64,000 bases of DNA from assembly GCA_963976765.1 (NCBI GenBank), contig CAXBME010000002.1:310001-374000 (forward strand), written 5' to 3'. Under the pieces are notes generated by a model that ran no database searches, was not told the DNA's origin, and saw nothing but the letters and a program-made list of their open reading frames with translations. Numbering within the stretch: the stretch's first letter is position 1; each line of letters begins with the position of its first letter. The DNA comes from an uncultured Planctomycetaceae bacterium. Lineage in GTDB: Bacteria; Planctomycetota; Planctomycetia; Planctomycetales; Planctomycetaceae. Shown one piece after another: positions 7,684 to 33,237 of this stretch. The position numbers and the translations under genes are program-made.

Positions 7684-10188
7684 CTAGCCGAGCAGCGAAA
7701 GAACCTGCTGTGGCTGCTGGTTCGCGATTGACAAAACCGAGATACCAGCCTGACTCAGAATCTGAGCCTTGGTCAGGTTGGCGGTTTCGACCGCGAAGTC
7801 TGTGTCGACGATCTGGCTTCGTGCTTCGGAAATGTTTTCCAGAGCCACTCCCAGTGTCGCGACGTTGGTTTCGATGACGTTTTTCTGAATGGCTCCCAGT
7901 CGGCCTCGCAGAGTGGAGACTCGATCCAGAGCTTCTTCAACGATGCTGACCAGGTCGGCACCGGACTGGCCATCGCCGATATCCAGCAGGCTCTTGCCGC
8001 CACCGGAACCCAGCTCGAAGAGCTTTCCGGACAGTCCGCCAAGACGGGCCGTATTAACAGACTCGATGCCGATTCCGATCTGTCCTGATGACGAGACTTC
8101 CTCGCCAATCTGGAACGTTGCTCCACCGCCGTTGATGGTGAAGCTTGCCGTATTGGCAGCCGTGTTCGCGGAGGTCTCGAACGTGATCGAAGCATCCAGA
8201 GAACCGGTTCTGATCGAGGCTTTCAGGCCATCCGTCTTGGCAATCTGGCCATTGATCGTGACACCGATGTCAGCACCAGTATCTCGACCAGCGGCTGTCG
8301 TGCTGTCACTGAGTGTGGTTGCAAACGAACCGCTCAGAACATCAACTTCGACAAACTGCCGTGAGCCGAAGTCGTTGCTGGTCAGAATCAGAGCACCGCT
8401 GCCGGCGTCAACAACACCGTTCGCCAGACCGCCGGTATCAGCAACAGTTTCCGATCCATCCCCTTCGGCAGTCGCATTGACGATCAGGCTGGCAGACGCG
8501 TCAGCATTGATAGCGGCCGCAACGTCAGCGGCTGTCGAAATAATGTTGCCATCAGCATCGGTCGCCAGATTGACGGTGATATCCGGATCATTTGCCGTAC
8601 CGCCAATTGTGATCGACAGTGCCTGGTCGGCGGCGGCTGGATCGGCAAACGCGACACGAGCCGTTCCAACACTCGGGTCAGACCGAACATCGGTGAACGA
8701 CACGTCGTTGTTCAATCCGTCGTTGCCGTCTGTGAAGGTAGTCGCGGCGGCGGCAATTGCCAAGGTCGTGCCTGTGCCAATATTCGTGGTATCCGTCGTG
8801 ATAAACTCAGCCGCACCGCCAGCCGTCTGATCGGCTGCAATGATATCGACCACTTCCTGCAACGTCGCCCCTGCCCCCAATGTCACGCTGACCGTGACAT
8901 CGCCATTGGCATCAGTTGCTGCTGTCGCAGAAGTAGCACCACCAGATGTCAGTTCGATTGATAGCGAACCGCCAAGTGTGGCAAACGAACCAGCAGTTGA
9001 CGTTGCTCGGTTGTCGGAGAATGTGACCGACTCGCCGTCGACCCCGCCAGTCAAGTCAGCAGCAGCTGCCACGTCAATTACGCCTACCGACGAATCGTTT
9101 GTGACTGTCACCAATGCACTGGCAGCACCATTTGTCGCGATTGCATTCTGGATGTCAGCGAAGTCGGCAGTGGAGTTCCCTGAACCGTCGTCTCTAAGTT
9201 CGATCTCGATGTTGACGTTTCCGCTCCCGTCCGTGGTAATTGCGCTGACCGAAGACGCACCAGACCCACTAGCACCGTTAACAAACGAGACGGACACTGT
9301 GCTGTTTCCGAACGAGGCATCCGTCCCAATCGTTGGGTCTGATCCACGATTGTCAGTGAAGACAATCCCACCACTCGTGGATGCGCCAACTGTCAGTGAG
9401 TTCCGAATCGCATTCGTGCTGAGTTCGAATGTGCCTGCGGTAGCTCCCTTGGTCAGGACCAGACCGTTTCCGATTGTGGCCGAGACACCGGTTGACTCGC
9501 TGACGCTGTTGATGGCGTCGCGGACGTTGGCAACAGTGCTGCCTGCGTCAAACTGAAGCACCTGGCTGCCGATGCCGCCTGAAACTTCAAGTGTCGTGGC
9601 GCTGGAGATGTTGCCGCCGGAGTAACGCAGTTCAGCTTTCTCGGCTGCACTGGTCACGGTAGCGTCAACAGAGATGGACGAGCTGGTCCCGAGCAACGCT
9701 TCGTTTACCTGGAAGTCAGAAATCTTGGCAGCATTTGCTGCTGTGAACGAGGTGTTGAAACCCTTTGACCCGTCGATCAGCTTGTCACCACCGAACGTCG
9801 TGTTTGACGAGATTCGGTTAATGGCAGAGAGGGCCGTATCGATCTGAAGCTGGTTGGCTTCGATCTCTGTGTCGGACAGAGCTCCACTGTTCAGACCTTC
9901 CTGAACCAGCCCACGAATCTGGTTGAGCAGTCCGCTGATTTCACCCAATGCACCATCGGCAGTGGCGATCACGTTGCTGGCTCGGTTGCTGTTTTTGATT
10001 GACTGCTCGATCGTGGTGACCTGGAATCGCAACTTCTCGCTGCCGATCAGGCCAGAAGGATTGTCCTTACCACTGTTGATCTGCGAACCCGTTGAAAGTC
10101 GCTGAATCGCTGAGTCAAGCTTGCTGTTTGCTTTGTTGAGGTTTCGAAGGCCTCGGGTAGCGCCAACGTTTGTGTTAATCCGCGTCAT
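7684..10188 (-). CDS. fliC: Flagellin (834 aa, large variable region)
   Basis: N-terminus MTRINTNV…IQRLSTGSQINSGKDNPSG. C-terminus RGRLGAIQ…ENISEARSQIVDTDFAVETANLTKAQILSQAG…QVLSLLG. Confidence 0.96.
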   Translation of the reverse strand: MTRINTNVGATRGLRNLNKANSKLDSAIQRLSTGSQINSGKDNPSGLIGSEKLRFQVTTIEQSIKNSNRASNVIATADGALGEISGLLNQIRGLVQEGLNSGALSDTEIEANQLQIDTALSAINRISSNTTFGGDKLIDGSKGFNTSFTAANAAKISDFQVNEALLGTSSSISVDATVTSAAEKAELRYSGGNISSATTLEVSGGIGSQVLQFDAGSTVANVRDAINSVSESTGVSATIGNGLVLTKGATAGTFELSTNAIRNSLTVGASTSGGIVFTDNRGSDPTIGTDASFGNSTVSVSFVNGASGSGASSVSAITTDGSGNVNIEIELRDDGSGNSTADFADIQNAIATNGAASALVTVTNDSSVGVIDVAAAADLTGGVDGESVTFSDNRATSTAGSFATLGGSLSIELTSGGATSATAATDANGDVTVSVTLGAGATLQEVVDIIAADQTAGGAAEFITTDTTNIGTGTTLAIAAAATTFTDGNDGLNNDVSFTDVRSDPSVGTARVAFADPAAADQALSITIGGTANDPDITVNLATDADGNIISTAADVAAAINADASASLIVNATAEGDGSETVADTGGLANGVVDAGSGALILTSNDFGSRQFVEVDVLSGSFATTLSDSTTAAGRDTGADIGVTINGQIAKTDGLKASIRTGSLDASITFETSANTAANTASFTINGGGATFQIGEEVSSSGQIGIGIESVNTARLGGLSGKLFELGSGGGKSLLDIGDGQSGADLVSIVEEALDRVSTLRGRLGAIQKNVIETNVATLGVALENISEARSQIVDTDFAVETANLTKAQILSQAGISVLSIANQQPQQVLSLLG

Positions 10189-10470
10189 GGCAATATGCCT
10201 TTCCTAAAGTGACCTTGGTGTTCCCTGGCTCTCCCGCAACCACTGATTTGATTCCGTCATCCGACGGCGTTGAATCAGTGGTTCATTCGAAGTGCCTCGG
10301 ACAGTTGAATCCCTGGCGTCTGAGAAAGTTGTTCCAACGTGTCTTCTGTGGTGTCAGTCAATCTGCCAGCCTCCACGACGTGGAACTTCTGGCTCAGACA
10401 GAAATCTCCTGTTCGGGGCGTCGATCGCTGGGAACATCCCGAGTGATCTATATGGCTCCTGCCAGTGCCT
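10189..10470 (-). promoter_or_regulatory. Candidate long flagellin 5' leader with multiple CsrA-type GGA sites
   Basis: 11 GGA in about 270 nt, including hairpins UGGC-AGGA-GCCA (10453-10464) and CCGUC-GGAU-GACGG (10254-10267), plus a GGA within the SD (UAGGAAAGG). Confidence 0.55.
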
Positions 10471-10476
10471 TGTTTC

Positions 10477-10484
10477 TTATCGAC
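10477..10484 (-). promoter_or_regulatory. Possible sigma-28 -10 element (GTCGATAA) for flagellin
   Basis: 7/8 match to GCCGATAA. No canonical TAAA -35 at the expected spacing. Confidence 0.35.
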
Positions 10485-10970
10485 TGACATTTGTGGTTCG
10501 CTGTTGATCAGCGAGTTGTGTCAGCCGTTTCGAAAGCCCTTCTCCATAACCGAATTGACTCCCAGACTTTTCTGGGCCATCGCAGTCACTATCGGTCAGG
10601 AAATCACGAACTGCGGATGTTTAGATGGAGCAACTGTGGAAATCAGGGACTATTAAGAGTGACACCTGATGAGCAACAGGGATTTCCCTCACTCTTATGA
10701 GCGAGTGAGCAGCCGGACGCGGTTTCAGCGTGAAACCAGAGAAACTACAGGCGACCTGAACGTGCCGCCGGGCGTCTGATACGATCCCTCGTTTGCGGGA
10801 TCAAAGAATGGCCCTGAACCGAAAGGTTGAGGGCGTGCCGTTGTCAGAAACTGGCCGGAGCGGGGGCGAATTTCGTTGATCGACGACCGTCCCCCCGCGA
10901 CGAACGGTCGGAGCGTCGTGCTCGGCACCACGTGGCCGGGCAATCGACGCGCGATCCTTCCGCTCAGCTG

Positions 10971-11192
10971 CTAGGTGGACGGCGACGTGGTGTCGTCGGC
11001 GACTTTCTCGCCGGATTCAGCCTGAGTCCGCTCGCGCTGAATCGCTTCGTAAACTTCCTGCCGATGTACGGGCACCTCTTTGGGAGCTTCGATACCCAGT
11101 CGGACCTTGTCACCACGAATGTCGACGATCGTAATTACGATGTTGTCGCCAATGATGATGCTCTCATCTCGTTGTCGGGACAAAACCAGCAT
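10971..11192 (-). CDS. csrA: Carbon storage regulator CsrA
   Basis: [62 protein letters not shown] before ATG at 11192. Confidence 0.96.
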
Positions 11193-12053
11193 CTGCAAGA
11201 CTCCTTCTCGTGTGTGAACTGCGTCTAACGACCAGACGTCAATTAATTCAGGTTCCGCGACCGCTTCAGTCTGAGTCGCAATGGCCAACGCAGAATTGGT
11301 GCCGGTCGCGATGCCAACCGTTGAGTCGACCTTTGCCAACTCGCGGTTGCCAGTTGGGGATCGCCGTCAGGAAAGCGAGCCTTCCAGAGACGCCGACATC
11401 CTTCCCGCACCGGGTGTACTTGATCCGTGGTTCCGTCATCGTCTGTCAGAGAGTCGCAACCCGGGCGCGTTTCCGGGATAAACACAGGACTCGCGAAAAC
11501 GGGGTGTCGGCTGTTCCGTTTGTGACGGGAAGAACGGATACTCGTGCAGAGATTTCGAGGCGAATTGCCGAAAGTCATTTGACGTTCAGCCACTTGACTC
11601 GAAATGGAATCAGTCGGCTTGAAAAATGAATCCGGCAGAAGCTGGACGTTAAAGTCGACTCGTTGCGACTCCGACGATGGCTGGGTAATGTTTGAGACGT
11701 GCCGGATTAAGGCCGCCGAGCCAGAGTTTCAGCGACGAGGAGCCATCCAAAGACTGGCTGTCTACGATGATCACCCTCGGCGTTGTTTGATTCTCCAGCC
11801 AGTTTTGAACGCGCCGCGTCAGGACAGAAAGACTGAACTGGCGACTCGACCAACGGCGTTCGAGTCGACAGACTGGTCAGGTTTCAGAAGTTGTCCCAGG
11901 CTGATTGGCAACCGACTCAGGGCTGCTCTGGCACAAAGCGTCGTTGATAGAATATTCGTGCCAGATCACTCGCCGTGATTTTATATCCGGGTGACTTTGT
12001 ATCAGGCGTCCCGCGTTCCCCCACTTCGTCGGAAAATCTACGGAGCTGTTTCG

Positions 12054-15024: not shown

Positions 15025-16851
15025 ATGAGTTTTATGGTCGCTAAGAGTTCAGATTCATCAGCTAAACCACCCGCCCGTCGACGTCGACGCGTTCGTACCA
15101 GTGAGGATGAAGTGGCAAGTTCTTCGAACAACGACGATGTAAGAGACGTCATCTTTGACGAGTCGGAAGACGCTGCTCCGCCGAAACGGAAGAAAGCTGC
15201 TCGCCGCAAAAGTGCAGCCGCAAAGTCGACGGAGCAGGAGCCGGACAAAGTCGCTGCTGGTGGCAGCGATGACTCAGAACCAGCCAAGCCAAAGCCGCGC
15301 CGACGGACACGCCGTACGACCGCAGCAGACGTTAGTGATGGCGAAGTGAGTGATCGCGATTCGTCGAATGATGAAGCACCTCCAGTTCAGTCGTCGCAGG
15401 ATCGAGCCGAACAGGATCGCCAGGAAAGACTGGATAACCGCGAGCAGGAAGGCGCTACATCAGATTCCGATGAAGACGGTCGTCCTCGACGCCGGCGCCG
15501 ACGCCGAAGGCGGCCACAGGGTGGCGGCGACGGCGGATTTAACAACAACGGCGGTAACAGCAATAACCATCAGGCTGGCGGTGGCGGTAACAACCAGAAC
15601 CAGCGCGGTGGGCGGCGACGACGCGGCCGGGGCGGTCGAGACGGCGGACGCGATGGTCGAGACAGTCGCCAGGGGGGACGCGATCGTGTTCGTTCCGTAG
15701 CTCCCAGCACGGAAGTTATCGAAGGGACGATCGATGGCGTCCTGGAGCTGCATCCGAAGGGCTATGGTTTTCTTCGGAACGCAGAGAAAGGGTACGTCGC
15801 ACAGGAATCAGATCCGTTCGTGCCGAGTTCACTGGTCGAAAAATACCGGTTACGTGAAGGCGTCATGATTCGAGGGGATGTTGGACCAGGGGTTCGCAAT
15901 CAGGGACCGCGGCTCAAAGAGGTCGAGTTGATCGACGGCATGACTCCCGAAGAGTATTCCGAGATCAAGAATTTCGACGAACTGACTCCGATCACACCGC
16001 ACGTTCACATTCGGCTGGAGACTGGCCCCAAGCCTGTGACCATGCGTGTCATGGATATGCTGACGCCGGTCGGAAAAGGCCAACGGGCATTGCTGGTCGC
16101 TCCGCCGCGAACTGGTAAGACGATGCTTCTGCAGGACATCGCCGACGCAGTCAGTAAGAACCATCCCGAAATGCATTTGATGGTTCTGTTGATCGATGAG
16201 CGTCCTGAAGAAGTCACCGAGATGACTCGCTGCGTCAAAGGCGAAGTCATTGCGTCTTCGATGGACCGTGATGTCGAAAGTCACGTCCGCATGAGCCAGC
16301 TCATGATCGAACGAGCCAAGCGAATGGCTGAAGCAGGCAAGGATGTTTTCATCCTGATGGACAGCATCACTCGCATGGCTCGAGCGTTTAACAAATGGGC
16401 CGGTGGTGGCGGTGGTGGCGGCAGTCGCCACTCGGGAACGATGAGCGGCGGCCTTCATGTGAAAGCTCTCGACATTCCGAAGAAGCTTTTTGGAACGGCT
16501 CGCCAGTTCGACGAAGGCGGCTCGATTACGATCGTCGCGACAGCGCTGATCGAAACGGGTGGCCGTATGGACGACGTGATTTTTCAGGAGTTCAAGGGGA
16601 CAGGCAACATGGAGCTTGTACTCAGTCGCGACCTGGCGGATCGTCGAATCTGGCCGGCAATTGACATCACTCGATCCGGCACACGACACGAAGAAAAACT
16701 GTTTGCCGAAGACGCTCTTGATAGTGTAATCATGCTTCGTCGGAGCCTGATTTCGCTCAGCCCTGTCGAAGCGATGGAGACACTGACCAGAACGCTGGAG
16801 CGGTTTCCAACAAACACAGAGTTCCTCACGAAAGTGAAGGCGATTCTTTAA
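15025..16851 (+). CDS. rho: Transcription termination factor Rho with long disordered N-terminal extension
   Basis: [53 protein letters not shown] and [10 protein letters not shown]. The start may be ATG 15025 or 15034. Confidence 0.96.
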
Positions 16852-16877
16852 CCGCAACGCCGTTTTTGAAGAACTTG

Positions 16878-16919
16878 ACTCCCGATTTCAGCAACCGCTG
16901 AAGTCGGGAGTTTTTCTTT
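16878..16919 (+). terminator. Intrinsic terminator after rho
   Basis: Stem actcccgatttcagc/gctgaagtcgggagt, followed by TTTTTCTTT. Confidence 0.88.
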
Positions 16920-17108: not shown

Positions 17109-17348
17109 ATGGGGATGATCGACCTGGGATCTCCAGCGGCGAAGGTTCATTCGTCATTGGAAAACCTGCAGGAAGCCTGGATGGCGGCACAGGAAAAGTG
17201 GAACGATGACAACGCTCGCAAGTTCGAAGAAGAGTATCTGATGCCGCTGGCGTTGACGGTCAAACTGTCGCTCGACGCAGTGAACCGGATGGCTGAGACA
17301 CTGCACGAAGCCGAACGGGACTGCCAGGAAGATCGAGAAGTCGTTTAG
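17109..17348 (+). CDS. Small helical-hairpin protein, WXG100/ESAT-6-like (WND variant)
   Basis: 79 aa: two amphipathic helices joined by K-W-N-D-D-N-A-R-K-F. No signal peptide. GAAGGG before ATG 17109. Directly upstream of the FtsK/EccC-like gene. Confidence 0.65.
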   Translation: MGMIDLGSPAAKVHSSLENLQEAWMAAQEKWNDDNARKFEEEYLMPLALTVKLSLDAVNRMAETLHEAERDCQEDREVV

Positions 17349-17433
17349 GACGTCTGGCAGCATCGCTCGCTGTGGTCGTGAAAAACTACCGAATACTTCT
17401 GCTGTCGTTCATGCTCGGAGAATTCGAAATATC

Positions 17434-20400
17434 ATGACAACTCTGCATAGCGAAGCTGACCCGATTCACGACTTAACGGAATCTGACGAAGCGACCGCAT
17501 CTCAGATGCTGTCAGATTCGGCACCGGATACACTCAACGCTTCGATATCTGGCACGCGGTATTCCGGGAACGCTGTGAAATCGGAGTGCGCCGTGTCTGG
17601 TCGGCTTTTCCCTGGTGACCGGCAGCAAGAGGAGATCAAAGTGCCGGGTGATGCTGCTGCGAAGCGAGTTCAGAATCTGATTCAGTCATTGTTCGACGGG
17701 ATTGCCCAGCGAGTTGATGGCGAGCTTGGTCTCGCGCAGCGACTGAAGAATGAACTGGCCGATGAACAGGTCCGCTTCCAGGCAGAGTCCGAAGCACGGC
17801 AGGCGCTTTACGAAACTGAACGAAAGGCTTTGCAGTCTGAATACGATTCCGTTTGCGCCGAGGCTGGACTTCATTATCAGGGGCATTACTCAGCGGCGTC
17901 CGAAGAGTATGACGAAGCACTTCGAGCCGCCAATGACGACTACGAAGACATCGCCGATCAGATTCGCAAGGAGTTCGAAGAGACTCGCTGGATGGTCGTG
18001 TCGTATTTCGACGAGAACGCAGGTGGGTCTCCCAAACAACAGTTCGAGCAGTTTGAACACAACGTTGAACGATCTCGCGAGCATCTTGAAAGCGAGTCAA
18101 CGCAACTCGAAGAGATTCACAAAGCCACTGTCGCGACCTTAAAAAAACGCCGCATGTGGACAGAGCCAGATCCAGCAGATCATGGTCCGTTGCCATCATC
18201 GCTCGACGGTCTGATTGAGCTGTTCGAAGAGCGGGCTGAGCAGACGCGTACTCAGGCAGCACGGTTGAACCGTCAAAAGTTGCCGTTCCTGTTTGCCGGT
18301 CTGTTGCCGCTGATTTTTTTTGTGGTGGTTGCTGGCGGACTGACAGCGACGACGTGGTTCGCGGTTGACCCCGCAATGCTTGGTTTCAAGACAACGCCAC
18401 CAATGCAGGAATGGCTGGCGATTCTTGGCGGCAGCTCTATTGTTCTAACGTTGGCCATACAAGGAATCCTGTTTGGAATCGCTCGCAGCGGTGCCGATTC
18501 CGGATATGAGAAACTGACTCAGGTGATCGTCGACTTACAGGCTGCTCGTCAGCAATGGACGCGACTTTCTGCTCGTGAGTTCAAGCGTCGAAAGAAGGAG
18601 TTCGACGAATGGTTCACATCCCTCGTTGAACAACGGGATTCACGGCTGCGAATGTCGCAGGAAAAGTTTGATCGAGAAATAAATTCTCATCGGCAACGCC
18701 GCGCCGAGCTGCTCAAGCAGGCAAACGATCGATACCCGTCTTTGATGGAACGACTGACTCGTGAACGCGACGAAAGATTGCAGCTGGCTCACGACGAGTT
18801 CCCACAAAAACTCGACAAGCTCAAAGCAAGATTTGAATGGGACACGAAGAAGATCGGCGAAGAAAGCCAGAGTCGCGCAGCAGCGATTCAGCAGCGATAC
18901 GATTTCGACTGGCAGAACATGTCGCGGTCATGGCATGGCGTCGTTGAATCGGTGCGTACTACCGCAGATCGGATGAACGCCGACGCGGCAAGAATTTCGC
19001 AACGCTGGCCCGACCTGGCGTTCGGAAACTGGGCTCCAGCAGCGTCGATCCCAGGCGGAGTTCGACTCGGCGATTTCAAACTGAACCTCGACGACATCGA
19101 GTATGGAATACCGGAAGATGATCGGCTTGTCCCGGAGGTCAGCGAGTTCTCAATCCCCGCCATGCTGCCGTTTCCAGACAAGGCTTCACTGCTGCTCCGA
19201 GCGAGCGGTGCCGAAGGCCGCCAGGCATCAGTTGACCTTCTGCAGGTCGTGATGCTTCGATTGCTGGCAACATTGCCGCCTGGAAAAGTTCGCTTCACCA
19301 TCATTGATCCGATCGGGCTGGGTGAAAACTTTTCTGCCTTCATGCACCTTGTCGATTACGACGAACTGCTTGTAACAAGCCGAATCTGGACCGAAGCATC
19401 GCACATCGACCAGCGGCTGACCGACCTGACCGAGCATATGGAAACGGTTTTCCAGACGTACCTGCGCAACGAGTTCAAAACGATCGAAGAGTACAACGAG
19501 TTCGCAGGCGAAGTCGCCGAGCCGTACCACATTCTGGTGATCGCCGGCTTTCCGTCGAGTTTTTCGGAACAGGCGGCAAGACGTCTGACAAGCATCATGT
19601 CGAGTGGTCCTCGATGTGGCGTTTACACACTGTTGAGCGTCGATCCACAGTTGACCATGCCGCCTAACTTCAGTCTGGCAGATGCGGCCTACGAAGCGAC
19701 GTGTCTGTCGTGGAATGACGGAGCTTTCGCCTTCGATGATGAGGAAGTTGCCTGGCTCCCGCTGGAGTTGCACCAACCGCCTGAACCTGATGAGTTCAGT
19801 CGATTTGTAAAGCGAGTTGGTGACGCTTCAAAAGATGCAAGACGTGTCGAAGTCTCTTTCGAGCGAGTTGTCCCGAAAGAACTCTGGCAGCAGGACAGCC
19901 GCAGTGGTCTGGATGTTCCGCTTGGCCGTGCAGGAGCGACGAAACTTCAGCATATGCGTCTGGGAAAAGGGACGTCGCAGCACGTTCTCATTGCTGGCAA
20001 GACGGGTTCCGGCAAGTCGACGCTGATGCACATTCTGGTGACAAATCTCGCTCTACATTACAGCCCGAACGAGATTGAGTTTTATCTGATCGACTTCAAG
20101 AAAGGCGTCGAGTTTAAGACGTACGCTGCGAATCGATTGCCGCACGCTCGCGTGATTGCCATCGAGAGTGATCGTGAATTCGGACTGAGCGTTCTGCAGC
20201 GGCTCGATGGAATTCTGAAAGAACGTGGCGATCTGTTCCGAGAACGAAGCGTGCAGGACATCGCCGGATTTCGTAACAACAATCCAGAGCGGATGCCTCG
20301 AATCATGCTGCTGATTGACGAGTTTCAGGAGTTCTTCACCGAAGACGATCGGATCTCGCAACAGGCTGCGTTGCTGATGGATCGGCTGGTGCGTCAAGGT

Positions 20401-21876
20401 CGAGCGTTCGGCATGCACGTGATGCTGGGATCGCAGACGCTGGGCGGAGCCTACTCGCTTGCACGCAGCACGCTCGGACAGGTTGCTGTCCGGATCGCGT
20501 TGCAGTGCAGCGAGGCTGACGCGCACCTGATTCTCAGTGAAGACAATACGGCCGCTCGGCTGCTGACTCGACCAGGCGAAGCCATCTATAACGACGCCAA
20601 CGGACTACTGGAAGGAAACCACCCGTTCCAGATCGCGTGGCTCGACGATGACAAACGCGACGGGCATCTTGGGCAGGTTCGCGACCTCACCGATGCGCAG
20701 AACATCGAAACTTCCGCCCCCATCATCTTTGAAGGGAACGTTCCGGCGATTCCGACTAACAATCGGGAACTGGTTGCATTATTTGCACCGGATCGAGTTG
20801 CCGAACCAACCTCGATTGTCGAAGCGTGGCTGGGCGAAGCGGTGGCCATCAAACCTCACACCTCGATTGGGTTTCGCCGGCTTGCAGGGTCGAACCTGCT
20901 GATCGTTGGGCAAAGTCCCGTCGGAGCACGCGGAATCCTGTCGTCGGTCGTGCTGGCCGCAGTCGGTCAGGTTCCGCCGGTCATACCCGACGATGCCGTC
21001 GGGCTGGTCGAGGATGACCTGGAGACAGACGACTCAGAATCAACAGCTAACGACGCGGCGTCTGAAACTTCAACTGTCGACGCGCTGGAAGCCATGAAGT
21101 CGTTCTCGTTTGCCAGCATGAAAATCCCGAATCCAGTTGACGAACCAGCAGAACCGAATGCCAAAGATGCAGGCAAAGTTCTTTCCGCAGCGCAGCTCTA
21201 TATTCTGGACGGTGAACTGGCAGACGCTCCGAGCGTCGAATTCTGGAGCAGTCTGACGCAAGGGTTGCCTCACGACATCCGTGTAGGTGGTCCAAACGAT
21301 GCCGCCGAGCTTGTCGGCGAACTGGCTGCAATTGTCGAGTCTCGTGGCAAGTCGACCGCTGCCCCTCCAGTCTTTTTCGTTGTCGACAACCTCGGTCGCT
21401 TCCGGGATCTTCGGAAGGGTGACGATGACTACAACTTTTCGCCCGACCGGAGCAAAGCCGCGAGCCCGGCAAAGCAGTTCGTTCAAATTCTGAAAGAGGG
21501 ACCGAGCGTCGGAGTCCACGTTCTCGTCTGGGCCGACACTTACAACAACGCCAGTCGATGGATGACGAATCAGACCATGCGGGAACTGGAAATGCGAGTC
21601 GCCTTCCAGATGAGCGCGACCGATTCAAGCCATCTGATTGATTCACCGGTTGCCGGGAGGCTTGGACAAAACCGAGCATTACTCTACCTTGAGGAAACAG
21701 GCACGCTTGAAAAGTTTCGTCCGTACGGTCTGCCGTCCGCGGAATGGCTGGCGACAATCAATGGACGCTTCAAATCGGATGAAAAAGAAGCGAACAATAC
21801 CGCCTCTGAGATTGCGACAATCCCCGACGAAGACATCGAAGTTTGCGATGACCTGAGTTCCTGGACGGTGCTTTAA
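17434..21876 (+). CDS. Membrane-anchored FtsK/SpoIIIE-family ATPase, EccC/EssC-like (type VII secretion-like coupling ATPase)
   Basis: Coiled coil, two TM helices, a second coiled coil, a degenerate ATPase-like domain (…PPGKVRFTIIDP), an intact ATPase (HVLIAGKTGSGKS, YLIDFKKG, LLIDEFQ, RQGRAFGMHVMLGSQ) and a degenerate C-terminal ATPase (NLLIVGQ, FVVDN, EGPSVGVH). No FtsK gamma domain. Confidence 0.85.
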   Translation: MTTLHSEADPIHDLTESDEATASQMLSDSAPDTLNASISGTRYSGNAVKSECAVSGRLFPGDRQQEEIKVPGDAAAKRVQNLIQSLFDGIAQRVDGELGLAQRLKNELADEQVRFQAESEARQALYETERKALQSEYDSVCAEAGLHYQGHYSAASEEYDEALRAANDDYEDIADQIRKEFEETRWMVVSYFDENAGGSPKQQFEQFEHNVERSREHLESESTQLEEIHKATVATLKKRRMWTEPDPADHGPLPSSLDGLIELFEERAEQTRTQAARLNRQKLPFLFAGLLPLIFFVVVAGGLTATTWFAVDPAMLGFKTTPPMQEWLAILGGSSIVLTLAIQGILFGIARSGADSGYEKLTQVIVDLQAARQQWTRLSAREFKRRKKEFDEWFTSLVEQRDSRLRMSQEKFDREINSHRQRRAELLKQANDRYPSLMERLTRERDERLQLAHDEFPQKLDKLKARFEWDTKKIGEESQSRAAAIQQRYDFDWQNMSRSWHGVVESVRTTADRMNADAARISQRWPDLAFGNWAPAASIPGGVRLGDFKLNLDDIEYGIPEDDRLVPEVSEFSIPAMLPFPDKASLLLRASGAEGRQASVDLLQVVMLRLLATLPPGKVRFTIIDPIGLGENFSAFMHLVDYDELLVTSRIWTEASHIDQRLTDLTEHMETVFQTYLRNEFKTIEEYNEFAGEVAEPYHILVIAGFPSSFSEQAARRLTSIMSSGPRCGVYTLLSVDPQLTMPPNFSLADAAYEATCLSWNDGAFAFDDEEVAWLPLELHQPPEPDEFSRFVKRVGDASKDARRVEVSFERVVPKELWQQDSRSGLDVPLGRAGATKLQHMRLGKGTSQHVLIAGKTGSGKSTLMHILVTNLALHYSPNEIEFYLIDFKKGVEFKTYAANRLPHARVIAIESDREFGLSVLQRLDGILKERGDLFRERSVQDIAGFRNNNPERMPRIMLLIDEFQEFFTEDDRISQQAALLMDRLVRQGRAFGMHVMLGSQTLGGAYSLARSTLGQVAVRIALQCSEADAHLILSEDNTAARLLTRPGEAIYNDANGLLEGNHPFQIAWLDDDKRDGHLGQVRDLTDAQNIETSAPIIFEGNVPAIPTNNRELVALFAPDRVAEPTSIVEAWLGEAVAIKPHTSIGFRRLAGSNLLIVGQSPVGARGILSSVVLAAVGQVPPVIPDDAVGLVEDDLETDDSESTANDAASETSTVDALEAMKSFSFASMKIPNPVDEPAEPNAKDAGKVLSAAQLYILDGELADAPSVEFWSSLTQGLPHDIRVGGPNDAAELVGELAAIVESRGKSTAAPPVFFVVDNLGRFRDLRKGDDDYNFSPDRSKAASPAKQFVQILKEGPSVGVHVLVWADTYNNASRWMTNQTMRELEMRVAFQMSATDSSHLIDSPVAGRLGQNRALLYLEETGTLEKFRPYGLPSAEWLATINGRFKSDEKEANNTASEIATIPDEDIEVCDDLSSWTVL

Positions 21877-23364: not shown

Positions 23365-24144
23365 TCAGGCAAACTCTGGACGACGTCGTCGGAGCTGGTC
23401 TTTTAAGCGAGCCACAATGCTGGAGTGCATCTGACTGACTCGTGATTCTGACAGACCAAGCGTCGAACCGATTTCCTTCATCGTCAATTCCTCGTAGTAG
23501 TAGAGGATCATGATGAGGCGTTCGTTGCGGTTCAGACCTTTGGTGACCAGACGCATGATATCGCGTTTCTGAATTCCACCGGTGGGGTCTTCGCCTTTCT
23601 GATCTTCGACGATGTCGACCTCTCGAACGTCCTTGTAGCTATCAGTCTCGTACCATTTCTTATTCAGACTGACGAGCCCGACGGCGCTCGCGTCGGATTT
23701 CATCTTTTCGTACTCTTCGAGCGACATTTCCATCTCAGCGGCCATTTCGGCGGCTGTTGGCGGACGTCCCACACGAGCTTCAACGCGCTTGCGTCCGGCT
23801 TCGAGCTTGCTGGCTTTGCTTCGTACAAGTCTCGGAACCCAGTCCATGGTGCGGAGTTCGTCCAGCATCGCTCCACGAATTCGCGGGACGCAGTACGTCT
23901 CGAATTTGACGCCACGTTCCATGTCGAATGCTTCGATGGCATCCATGAGTCCGAAGACGCCGGCCGAAATCAGGTCGTTCAGGTCGACCCCTTCGGGCAG
24001 TTTCTGCCACACACGCTCAGCGTTGTATTTGACTAACGGAAAGTACCGTTCGATGAGAATGTTCCGCAGTCGCTGATCCTTGAGATCTGCTTTGAAGTCC
24101 TTCCAGACCTCTGCCAGAACTTCGTCGCTGATCTTCGTTGCCAT
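23365..24144 (-). CDS. fliA: FliA/WhiG-family RNA polymerase sigma factor (sigma-28)
   Basis: DLISAGVFGLMDAI, FETYCVPRIRGAMLDELRTMDWVPR and YYYEELTMKEIGSTLGLSESRVSQMH. GGAGG RBS before ATG 24144. Confidence 0.94.
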   Translation of the reverse strand: MATKISDEVLAEVWKDFKADLKDQRLRNILIERYFPLVKYNAERVWQKLPEGVDLNDLISAGVFGLMDAIEAFDMERGVKFETYCVPRIRGAMLDELRTMDWVPRLVRSKASKLEAGRKRVEARVGRPPTAAEMAAEMEMSLEEYEKMKSDASAVGLVSLNKKWYETDSYKDVREVDIVEDQKGEDPTGGIQKRDIMRLVTKGLNRNERLIMILYYYEELTMKEIGSTLGLSESRVSQMHSSIVARLKDQLRRRRPEFA

Positions 24145-24211
24145 GAAACCCTCCGTGGTTTTCATCGTCATGCAGTTTCGAACTCTGTTATGGACGCGTC
24201 AGCAGCGTCGT

Positions 24212-31083: not shown

Positions 31084-33237
31084 ATGAACGACGCGGAGGC
31101 ATGGATGCCGCCGGATTCGGCCAACGGATTGCAGCAGACATGGGCGCAGGTGCGGGGATTCGCGTTCCCGCTTCTGATCGTGACGTCCATTCTGGTGATC
31201 ATTGCGCCGCTGCCCCCGCTGATGATGGACATGCTGCTGGCCTGTAATGTGACGGCTGCCGTCCTCATCCTGCTGACGACAATTTACGTCTCCAGACCGC
31301 TCGAATTCAGCGTATTTCCGGCGATTCTGCTGGGAACCACGCTCGCCCGGCTGGTGCTGAATGTTGCCTCCACCCGGTTGATTCTGACTCGAGGAGCGAC
31401 CGACAAAACTGGAGCGGCGGGCGAAGTCATTCAGGCGTTTGGCGAATTCGTCGCCGGTGACAAGATCGCCGTTGGGCTGATTCTGTTTGCGATTCTGGTC
31501 GCGATTCAGTTTCTGGTCATTACTAAAGGTTCCGGTCGAATCAGCGAAGTCGCGGCCCGATTCTTTCTCGACGGAATGCCCGGCAAGCAGATGTCGATCG
31601 ACGCCGACCTCGCGGCCAATGTGATCACTCAGGACGAAGCGAAAGCTCGCCGCCAGGAAATTTCACAACAGGCGGACTTTTACGGAGCGATGGACGGTGC
31701 CAGCAAGTTCGTGCGCGGTGACGCTATCGCCGGCATCGTTATTACGTTGATCAATATTGCCGGCGGTCTGTATATCGGCATCGTCGAGAACGGGATGAGT
31801 TTCGGCGAAGCTGGAGAAGTCTTCACGAAGCTGACCATCGGTGATGGACTGGTGACGCAGATTCCGGGCTTTCTGATTTCGCTGGCGGCAGGTCTGATCG
31901 TGACCCGGTCATCGGTCGAAAGCGACCTGCCGAAGGAAGTCATGAGCCAGATGTTTCGGCATCCGGAAGCTCTGTTTCTCTCGTCGGCATTTCTGGGAGC
32001 AATGGCATTTACCGGAATGCCAATGGGGCCACTGCTTTTCCTTTCGGCCGGATGTACGGTGATCGGCCTGTCACTGCAGAAGAATTTGAAGAAGACCGCG
32101 CAGGCTGCTGATATCAAGACGGCGGCGGACCTTCCAGAGAATCAGCCTCCCCCGGAACGGAAGCCGGAAGACCGTCTGCCTGTCGAACCGCTGATGGTGG
32201 AACTCGGAGCGGGCGTCGTGCCACTGGCCGACCCGTCTCGCGGCGGCGACATGCTGGAACGAGTCATGCAGATTCGACACCAGATCGCCGAAGAGCTGGG
32301 CATCATCCTTCCGAAAGTTCGCGTGCGGGATAACACCTGGCTCGGCGTCAATGAATACGTCATTCGAATTCGCGATATGGAAGTAGCGAAGGGCGAGGTC
32401 TGGCCATCAAACATACTGGCAATCAACCGCGGAACCGCCGAAGGCGACCTGCCCGGAATTAAGACGACCGACCCACTGAACGACAATCCGTCGTTCTGGA
32501 TCGACCCCGGCCAGGTGGACCGTGCGGAAGGACAGGGTTACGCAACTGTCGAACCATCGATCGTCATCATCATGCATCTGACCGAGATCATTCGTCAGCA
32601 CGCATCCGAACTGCTGACACGTCAGCACGTTCATGAGTTGATCGGTGCCTTGAAGGACCGCGCTCCGAAGCTGGTTGAAGAAGTGAATCCCGACCATGTC
32701 AAAATGTCGCACGTTCATCAGGTGCTGAAGAACCTTCTGGCCGAGCGTGTACCGGTGCGTGATCTGGAAACCATCCTGCAGACAACCATCGACAACTCAG
32801 ATCGAATTTCGAACCTGGCGATCATGACCGAGTACGTCCGCACGGCGCTCGCTCGAACGATCTGTCAGAAGTATCGAGATTTGAAACGTCGAATTCACCT
32901 GGTGAGTCTCGACCCGGTTCTGGAAGACTTCCTTCGGCAGAAGATGGATTTTGACCAGTTCGGGATTGGCTCGAAGCTGACGCCGCAGGAGTCCGAAGCC
33001 ATCCTGGATGGTCTGAAAGTCGAGCTGAAAAAACTGACCGACATCGGTCTGCAGCCTGTCGTCATCACGACGGCTCCGCAGATTCGAGCCGGTTTGCGAC
33101 AGATGACGAGCCGGGCATTGCCGAAACTGGCCGTGCTTTGTCTCAACGAAATTACTCCGGAAACACAGATCGTCAGCCGCGGCTATGTGAGTGCCGAAGT
33201 TCTGCGATCCGTACTGATGGCTCAAACAGAAGGTTAA
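31084..33237 (+). CDS. flhA: Flagellar export apparatus protein FlhA
   Basis: RLVLNVASTRLIL, ITKGSGRISEVAARFFLDGMPGKQMSIDADL, FYGAMDGASKFVRGDA and LTIGDGLVTQIP. Confidence 0.96.
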   Translation: MNDAEAWMPPDSANGLQQTWAQVRGFAFPLLIVTSILVIIAPLPPLMMDMLLACNVTAAVLILLTTIYVSRPLEFSVFPAILLGTTLARLVLNVASTRLILTRGATDKTGAAGEVIQAFGEFVAGDKIAVGLILFAILVAIQFLVITKGSGRISEVAARFFLDGMPGKQMSIDADLAANVITQDEAKARRQEISQQADFYGAMDGASKFVRGDAIAGIVITLINIAGGLYIGIVENGMSFGEAGEVFTKLTIGDGLVTQIPGFLISLAAGLIVTRSSVESDLPKEVMSQMFRHPEALFLSSAFLGAMAFTGMPMGPLLFLSAGCTVIGLSLQKNLKKTAQAADIKTAADLPENQPPPERKPEDRLPVEPLMVELGAGVVPLADPSRGGDMLERVMQIRHQIAEELGIILPKVRVRDNTWLGVNEYVIRIRDMEVAKGEVWPSNILAINRGTAEGDLPGIKTTDPLNDNPSFWIDPGQVDRAEGQGYATVEPSIVIIMHLTEIIRQHASELLTRQHVHELIGALKDRAPKLVEEVNPDHVKMSHVHQVLKNLLAERVPVRDLETILQTTIDNSDRISNLAIMTEYVRTALARTICQKYRDLKRRIHLVSLDPVLEDFLRQKMDFDQFGIGSKLTPQESEAILDGLKVELKKLTDIGLQPVVITTAPQIRAGLRQMTSRALPKLAVLCLNEITPETQIVSRGYVSAEVLRSVLMAQTEG

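Follow-up and report, generated by a model that had tools for sequence, protein, structure and literature searches.

The DNA analysed here is a 64,000-nucleotide stretch (the window) of an uncultured Planctomycetaceae bacterium (assembly GCA_963976765.1, contig CAXBME010000002.1, positions 310,001 to 374,000), in which an earlier note, made from the letters alone, had described a two-gene type VII secretion system (T7SS)-like module consisting of a small WXG100-like protein and an EccC-like ATPase. We found that the set has four genes rather than two, encoding EsxA, Mid, EsxB and the ATPase, and that it is a module of a known kind in a distinct variant, which is membrane-anchored, toxin-free, present in single copy and kept as a set after operon break-up. 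Judged by its predicted anatomy, the set resembles a T7SS and belongs to neither T7SSa nor T7SSb; on balance, the sequence data lean towards a T7SS-like export of a helical EsxA-Mid-EsxB trimer across the inner membrane. Type VII secretion is an established process in Actinobacteria and Firmicutes, and the planctomycete host phylum has an outer membrane.

Both open reading frames (ORFs) described in the window, of 79 and 1480 amino acids (aa), were confirmed, together with their coordinates, the 85 nt that separate them and the hairpin fold with a W-N-D turn of the smaller product. The two remaining genes lie side by side on another contig of the assembly (C5) and encode a 90-aa WXG100 protein with a W-R-D turn (EsxA) and a 166-aa helical hairpin (Mid). 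Both gene pairs are far from contig ends, and the same pairing was observed in the two other genomes of the genus. The features of the set are as follows (AF2, AlphaFold2):

17109..17348, + strand: EsxB-like WXG100-type hairpin, 79 aa, with a W-N-D turn and a near-invariant Cys72 (profile, alignment, predicted structure)
17434..21876, + strand: membrane-anchored three-domain ATPase of the FtsK/HerA superfamily, 1480 aa
17659..18270, + strand: N-terminal helical stalk, ATPase residues 76-279, with a predicted 118-residue helix (AF2)
18274..18483, + strand: two-helix hydrophobic hairpin with a short loop, ATPase residues 281-350 (hydrophobic segments)
18484..18996, + strand: post-membrane stalk, ATPase residues 351-521, one predicted helix running on from the second membrane segment (AF2)
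19111..19803, + strand: D1, degenerate FtsK-fold domain without Walker A or B, its central part highly conserved
19876..20658, + strand: D2, intact ATPase domain with G[KR]TGSGKS, DE and RQGRAFG (73/73 orthologues)
20806..21753, + strand: D3, degenerate FtsK-fold domain with a lineage-specific acidic insertion (about 20974-21183)
contig C5:254787-255059, - strand: EsxA-like partner gene, outside the window
contig C5:254223-254723, - strand: Mid partner gene, outside the window

The four genes are tied together by their order and by their joint retention. A scan of GTDB genomes yielded at least 505 stretches encoding ATPase relatives, of which 80, nearly all titled Planctomycetota or Verrucomicrobiota, were used. 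Among 62 loci for which 2 kb or more of upstream sequence was available, a count that takes in the window and one duplicated contig, 43 had three small genes before the ATPase gene, two the EsxB-like gene only, one EsxA only and 16 none. The synteny survey proposed by the earlier note thereby showed that W-x-D proteins co-occur with the ATPase, the order EsxA-Mid-EsxB-ATPase being kept in 48/48 loci holding all three small genes, the same loci from which the small-gene profiles were built. In the family survey (121 genomes, each at least 90% complete), all four genes were present, each once, in 82 genomes, three genes in two and none in 37. EsxA and EsxB occurred in the same 84 genomes, the ATPase in 83 and Mid also in 83, always as a single copy (83/83). 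The two genomes with three genes are assemblies of 620 and 480 contigs. Out of seven positive genomes in a single contig, five split the set over two to four loci (over four in G204 and G237) and two keep the operon. Phylum-wide, the distribution is patchy, with the ATPase in 13/150 genomes and EsxA in 14/150; all 13 ATPase genomes have EsxA, and in the 14th EsxA genome, which lacks the ATPase, the gene is located at a contig end.

When the ATPase tree was compared with taxonomy, 14 label changes were counted (minimum 13; shuffled mean 23.2; 0/200 shuffles as low), the labels being the submitters' titles and related sequences not being independent. From the all-or-none retention and this taxonomy-tracking tree we infer vertical inheritance with repeated loss, and products that work together in trans. 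Since many planctomycetes keep all four genes even where these are scattered over the chromosome and toxin-free, the set probably has a routine cellular job, and joint retention after operon break-up points to a routine function in planctomycete biology.

The anatomy of the ATPase as first described (two membrane segments, one intact ATPase and degenerate flanking domains) was borne out by motif, profile and AF2 data. Hydrophobic segments are located at residues 281-312 and 327-350, and two such segments before residue 500 are found in 67/73 full-length orthologues. D2 is the sole intact domain among three FtsK-fold domains, with Walker A (GKTGSGKS) at residues 855-862 and Walker B (LLIDE) at 959-963; G[KR]TGSGKS, DE and the RQGRAFG arginine-finger region are kept in 73/73 orthologues. 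The flanking D1 and D3, devoid of Walker motifs, are degenerate FtsK-fold domains (hhalign: D3-D2 97%, D1-D3 94%, D1-D2 not significant), and D1 matches PF01580 at 23.5 bits. The earlier note had listed fewer ATPase domains as a difference; three is the number usually counted for EssC, and here one of the three is active. A Pfam scan detected FtsK_SpoIIIE and neither an FHA domain, as the earlier note had stated, nor an FtsK gamma domain. The acidic insertion (about residues 1181-1250) is real; however, it is filled at 1201-1240 in only ~11% of 73 aligned ATPases, and residues 1-80 likewise show little conservation in that alignment, so that neither is a family feature. As separate observations, genome G091 carries two ATPase copies (contigs C126 and C138), and contig C1 of G008 (genome 86% complete) encodes a 960-aa ATPase adjoining EsxA, with Mid and EsxB not found in that genome.

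The AF2 model of residues 75-1120 (predicted local distance difference test, pLDDT, 84; predicted template modelling score, pTM, 0.59) shows a predicted 118-residue helix ahead of the membrane hairpin and, running from the second membrane segment up to D1, a predicted helix of 198 residues (model numbering 250-447, that is, residues 324-521). Such very long helices on either side of the hairpin, a part that soluble relatives lack, would suit a structural device, in which six long stalks and their hydrophobic hairpins tether or bend the inner membrane and the trimer is a polymerising subunit recycled by the ATPase; the housekeeping-like inheritance would also fit. We regard such a device as improbable, given that stalk sequence is poorly conserved (about 30%), that the set is missing from 37 of the 121 family genomes and that Mid is unmatched by the PspA/ESCRT-III families.

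With regard to family placement, EccC and EssC ranked first in NCBIfam, PDB and fold searches with the ATPase. In NCBIfam, EccCa, EssC and EccCb came first (about 1e-30) and then FtsK (5e-6); the best-scoring PDB sequences were those of EccC/EssC, with weak TcpA and FtsK matches also detected; and Foldseek with the ATPase model gave EccC and EssC on top (6e-20), then FtsK (2e-13), a lead due in part to the tandem domains. Two membrane helices and tandem FtsK-fold domains, as expected of EccC/EssC, are present. However, the NCBIfam cut-offs for EccCa, EccCb and EssC were missed by far (106, 104 and 103 bits vs. 509, 347 and 778), and in an unrooted tree the ATPases of the Planctomycetota-Verrucomicrobiota-Chlamydiota (PVC) group and their plasmid relatives formed a clade of their own (support 100/99, with one misplaced long-branch fragment included), apart from EccC/EssC and FtsK. 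The ATPase is hence not a member of EccC/EssC.

A grouping with DNA-translocating FtsK had been named by the earlier note as a finding that would speak against it. The ATPase has no gamma domain and is not nested in the FtsK clade, and it is not the DNA-translocating FtsK of the cell, which has a gamma domain and is encoded on contig C7. These results, together with the strict co-retention with three helical hairpin genes, make it very improbable that the protein is a DNA translocase or a coupling protein of conjugation whose small neighbours are there by chance, for which the FtsK/HerA superfamily fold, the position on the FtsK side of the unrooted tree and the weak TcpA and FtsK matches could be adduced. 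Further, no relaxase or type IV secretion system gene is conserved beside 97 relative loci, and GC content, overall and at third codon positions, is the same in the locus as in its neighbours and the genome (0.55 vs. 0.56).

The 79-aa EsxB places W31-N32-D33 between predicted helices 7-28 and 34-78 (AF2, pLDDT 92). W31 and D33 are unchanged in 56/56 aligned homologues, and therefore the W-x-D hairpin is not a chance feature. Its turn differs from the W-x-G of the WXG100 consensus, as does that of HP0062 (W-R-D), and its length is below the typical WXG100 size of about 100 aa; the helix-turn-helix hairpin is that expected of the superfamily. The protein itself has no Pfam match, and 12/56 homologues match PF06013 at E ≤ 0.1. 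The family profile recognised Staphylococcus aureus EsxA (E 1e-4), and hhalign paired the family with the EsxA family (82%), the W-x-D positions being aligned. Foldseek returned nothing at E ≤ 0.001, in a fold search that discriminates poorly for so short a hairpin, and in VIA the top match, HP0062 (Z 8.8; rmsd 1.8 over 76), was level with unrelated hairpins. A C-terminal cysteine (position 72) is present in 51/56 homologues, and the first three positions of the C-terminal WXG100 pattern HxxxD/ExxhxxxH, as given in PMC3935865, in 22/56. Taken together, profile and fold results favour membership of the WXG100 superfamily, in line with what had been proposed for this protein.

EsxA scored above the Pfam cut-off of PF06013 (34.5 vs. 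27.3 bits) and under that of TIGR03930 (24.3 vs. 44.85 bits), and 50/50 members match PF06013 at E ≤ 0.1. Its best solved relative is Helicobacter pylori HP0062 (profile E 6e-13). A shortened C-terminal pattern, A80-xxx-E84-xx-L87, was found in 46/50 EsxA proteins, the final pattern position lying beyond the end of EsxA. Mid, with 3267 representatives among its homologues at E ≤ 0.001, matched no known family in Pfam and NCBIfam profile scans. EsxA can be aligned to Mid in two halves, at Mid 6-39 and 121-159 (scores 24.9 and 19.7 vs. ≤16.2 for seven controls), and the invariant tyrosines then fall in register. This gives modest support to the idea that Mid may be a WXG100 hairpin extended by some 75 residues. 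Cys86 is found in 132/190 Mid homologues, and Cys73 only alongside Cys86 (74/74; related sequences not being independent), as a putative hairpin-tip disulfide would have it.

A three-chain model of EsxB, Mid and EsxA scored 0.80, vs. 0.33 for the best control, with contacts agreeing at ≥96% and a partner pLDDT of at least 87. The score covers EsxB-Mid and not EsxA-Mid, and its mark is reached by 116/157 solved and 2/215 mismatched pairs. In the model, residues 2-48 and 106-149 of Mid form the surface on which EsxB packs, and contact between EsxB and EsxA is confined to residues 86-89. The model supports binding of EsxB to Mid, while the place of EsxA in the putative trimer would follow by analogy to LXG-Lap trimers. 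A partner Esx gene had been expected elsewhere in the genome, and EsxA on contig C5 is such a gene; the modelled partner of the 79-aa protein, however, is Mid.

In the export mechanism that we propose, EsxB and EsxA would bind the long Mid hairpin, giving a rod-shaped helical trimer. The ATPase would assemble as a ring, presumably a hexamer, judging from the FtsK/EccC family and from its invariant arginine-finger motif. Each subunit would be anchored by two membrane helices, which are the probable pore-forming elements, and the helical stalk of perhaps ~25 nm (about 170 residues × 1.5 Å) would keep the motor in the cytoplasm. The inactive D1 and D3 may recognise and gate the substrate, and ATP hydrolysis by D2 would push the trimer through the inner membrane into what is presumably its destination, the periplasm. 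The cargo would be the trimer itself plus whatever hangs on the C-terminus of Mid, and this stand-alone unit, kept without a toxin, may have a housekeeping role.

Several observations weigh against this export. The unrooted split places the ATPase on the FtsK side (98/86) and not with EccC/EssC, and an outgroup test rejects neither sister (approximately unbiased test, p-AU 0.24 for EccC/EssC and 0.066 for FtsK), in a tree where several outgroups are ABC or PilT-like and do not fall on one side of a branch and from which 16 rows of the unrooted tree were left out. Clustering of all ORFs in 97 relative loci and part of the window did not reveal a fifth conserved gene. EccB (PF05108) and EssB/YukC (PF10140) were unmatched genome-wide with positive controls, as the earlier note had found for the window, EccD, EccE, MycP, EssA and EsaA not being searched for; LXG was also unmatched in the genome, and consequently no outer-membrane conduit is known for the set. 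The YxxxD/E motif after the invariant tyrosine is not conserved (0/50 EsxA, 20/188 scored Mid), and both tip cysteines are missing from the Mid of this genome. Likeness to solved WXG100, PE-PPE and LXG-Lap bundles may account for the complex score, and a three-chain model is unlike the pairs on which the score was calibrated. Lastly, hydrophobic segments are absent from the Caballeronia ATPase, a plasmid relative, and the Helicobacter ATPase has just one, which is marginal, so that the family is not always in need of a pore, and Bell 2024 (PMC11090510), in the part dealing with the soluble form, argue for a different mechanism.

A YukD/EsaB match (contig C3:192922-193134) was rejected as a component, as it heads a ubiquitin-like operon and occurs in 15/121 family genomes, three of them without the module. 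In that operon (contig C3:192889-200541), the YukD-type ubiquitin-like gene is followed by E1/ThiF-like, JAB-like, membrane, zinc-ribbon and E2-like ORFs, as read from their translations.

Outside the PVC group, plasmid ATPases of Rhodococcus, Caballeronia, Deinococcus and Helicobacter match all three ATPase domains. The Helicobacter plasmid has, in this order, an EsxA-like gene, a gene for a 340-aa helical protein with a WHH nuclease, an SMI1/KNR4 immunity gene, a gene for a 77-aa protein and that of an 823-aa ATPase without a long stalk. The Caballeronia plasmid keeps the same order, and there (L158:5060-18495) the WXG100/FtsK set lies among vWA, CARF, PP2C, Ser/Thr kinase and AAA genes, as in TerY-P loci. 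On the Rhodococcus plasmid (L165:2752-10969), a related 930-aa ATPase was observed behind Hsp70, TPR and GrpE genes.

The soluble relatives without membrane helices and the Caballeronia locus with its vWA, PP2C, kinase and CARF genes could also mean that nothing is exported, and that the ATPase is a membrane-tethered remodeller dismantling or activating the Esx-Mid trimer in the cell, in a stress or anti-phage response inherited from a TerY-P/CoCoNuT-linked soluble form. The long stalk, which keeps the motor far from the membrane, would agree with this, and in its account of these loci Bell 2024 (PMC11090510) ties the family to defence. We consider a remodeller rather unlikely, as no defence gene is conserved beside the 97 relative loci, and PADLOC gave generic ATPase-domain matches only and none for the three small proteins. 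The inheritance of the set, single-copy and taxonomy-tracking, is also unlike that of most defence islands.

Returning to export, the armed Helicobacter relative raises the question of toxins. Mid occupies the slot where armed loci have a toxin. A hidden Markov model of Mid gave weak matches to the toxin carriers of Deinococcus, Rhodococcus and Caballeronia (E 4e-6 to 2e-4 in a set of ~30 proteins) and none to the Helicobacter nuclease; gene order is thus the basis for the shared slot, sequence homology to these proteins being weak or absent. Past the hairpin, almost nothing follows in this Mid, a disordered tail in most relatives and an Imm33-like domain in some, namely in 15/22 long homologues scanned, which were picked for length from the best 150. 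This links the family to toxin-immunity biology and, with the Helicobacter locus, would be in line with an armed polymorphic-toxin exporter with toxin cargoes that are encoded at other places in the genome and escaped detection. An exporter of this kind is, in our view, unlikely: this genome has one strong Mid-type gene, one WXG100 gene above the cut-off and no LXG match, Mid is single copy wherever it occurs in the family, and the 27 longer EsxA forms carry no toxin family. No toxin-fused Mid homologue of at least 381 aa was found either, which is weak evidence.

As to the long Mid form itself, a subfamily of about 335-370 aa (P0028, P0045, P0051, P0058, P0060, P0071, P0085 and others) bears the C-terminal Imm33-like domain; in these proteins, a putative export carrier ends in a fold of the immunity type. 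In the genome analysed here, a scan for the Imm33-like domain gave no match, its positive control not being recovered either. In the ESM Atlas, only unnamed planctomycete clusters and one Imm33-like cluster of 433 members, matching the long form, were obtained, and none of the Mid matches in 401 phylum genomes runs into an Imm33-like domain.

The earlier note had taken the module for a distinct, little-studied exporter; the kind has already been described by comparative genomics in Zhang 2012, Bell 2024 and Uchiyama 2016. Note 6 to Table 1 of Zhang 2012 (PMC3482391) reports this ATPase type and solo WXG proteins in planctomycetes and verrucomicrobia as mobile T7SS versions. The ATPase design (three HerA/FtsK domains, the middle one active), the solo WXG proteins and the host phyla are the same here; in contrast to "mobile" modules, the present set is single copy, tracks taxonomy, has genome-like GC and survives operon break-up, and that table note is silent on Mid, a second Esx and a membrane stalk. 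The EssC-like ATPase operon of type III-A CoCoNuT/TerY-P loci, as portrayed in the relevant part of Bell 2024 (PMC11090510), is soluble and nuclease-bearing. In both forms, D2 alone is active among three ATPase domains, the N-terminal part includes a coiled coil, and a coiled-coil partner accompanies two WXG100-like proteins. The soluble form differs in having no membrane helices, a D-ExK nuclease on the coiled-coil partner and a DNA-mimic gene that follows. In the planctomycete form, a membrane hairpin lies within the stalk, the partner carries no nuclease, and neither an immunity gene nor defence neighbours are present.

In H. pylori, WxG plus FtsK has been called the minimal T7SS set in a passage of Uchiyama 2016 (PMC4978471). 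The HP0062/HP0066 pair (PDB 3FX7; PMC3397514, PMC4978471) has a W-R-D WXG100 protein in common with our set, and the Helicobacter plasmid ATPase belongs to the same clade; HP0062 is reported as a homodimer. EccC/EssC and the LXG-Lap trimer, as depicted in Klein 2024 (PMC10801868), resemble the set in the two-helix membrane anchor, the FtsK-fold domains in tandem, the WXG100 partners and the pair of small hairpins that bind a long helical carrier. Unlike T7SSa and T7SSb, the set has a separate ATPase clade, no FHA, no EccB, EssB or LXG match, no YxxxD/E and a long cytoplasmic stalk.

Our literature search, which left most subscription journals outside, retrieved no functional test of WXG/FtsK sets in outer-membrane bacteria, no account of the scattered, membrane-anchored form, a variant that the supplements of Zhang 2012 and Bell 2024 may list, and no paper on scattering with all-or-none retention; in a 2025 Planctomycetota review, the terms 'secretion system', 'T7SS' and 'type VII' do not occur. 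As a speculative extension of the export mechanism, planctomycetes and verrucomicrobia might have domesticated a mobile cassette for toxin export, turning it into a third T7SS class of four genes, in which the stalked ATPase would be both pore and motor and an exported, toxin-free EsxA-Mid-EsxB rod would work in the periplasm as an envelope scaffold, an outer-membrane conduit or a carrier of immunity-type domains. WXG/FtsK sets of outer-membrane bacteria are known from comparative genomics, and the variant described here offers the simplest test case: it is toxin-free, its four genes are single-copy and its ATPase has one active site. If export is true, an EccC-like ATPase alone would be enough for a translocon, which raises the matter of substrate destination in a cell with an outer membrane.

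The window pair is preceded by the following features:

15025-16851: rho, the upstream gene
16877..16912, + strand: terminator-like hairpin of 16 pairs, 3' of rho (consensus scan only)

Because this hairpin closes the upstream rho, esxB and the ATPase gene are probably a transcription unit of their own. Neither rho nor the downstream Ser/Thr kinase was among the conserved neighbours in the ORF clustering of the 97 relative loci and part of the window. Flagellin-like (834 aa), CsrA-like, FliA-like and FlhA-like ORFs, putatively named from their motifs, surround the locus (window 7684-11339, 23365-24171 and 31084-33237) and are not conserved neighbours in relatives. The Rho protein itself carries a long, charged, low-complexity N-terminal extension of ~230 aa.

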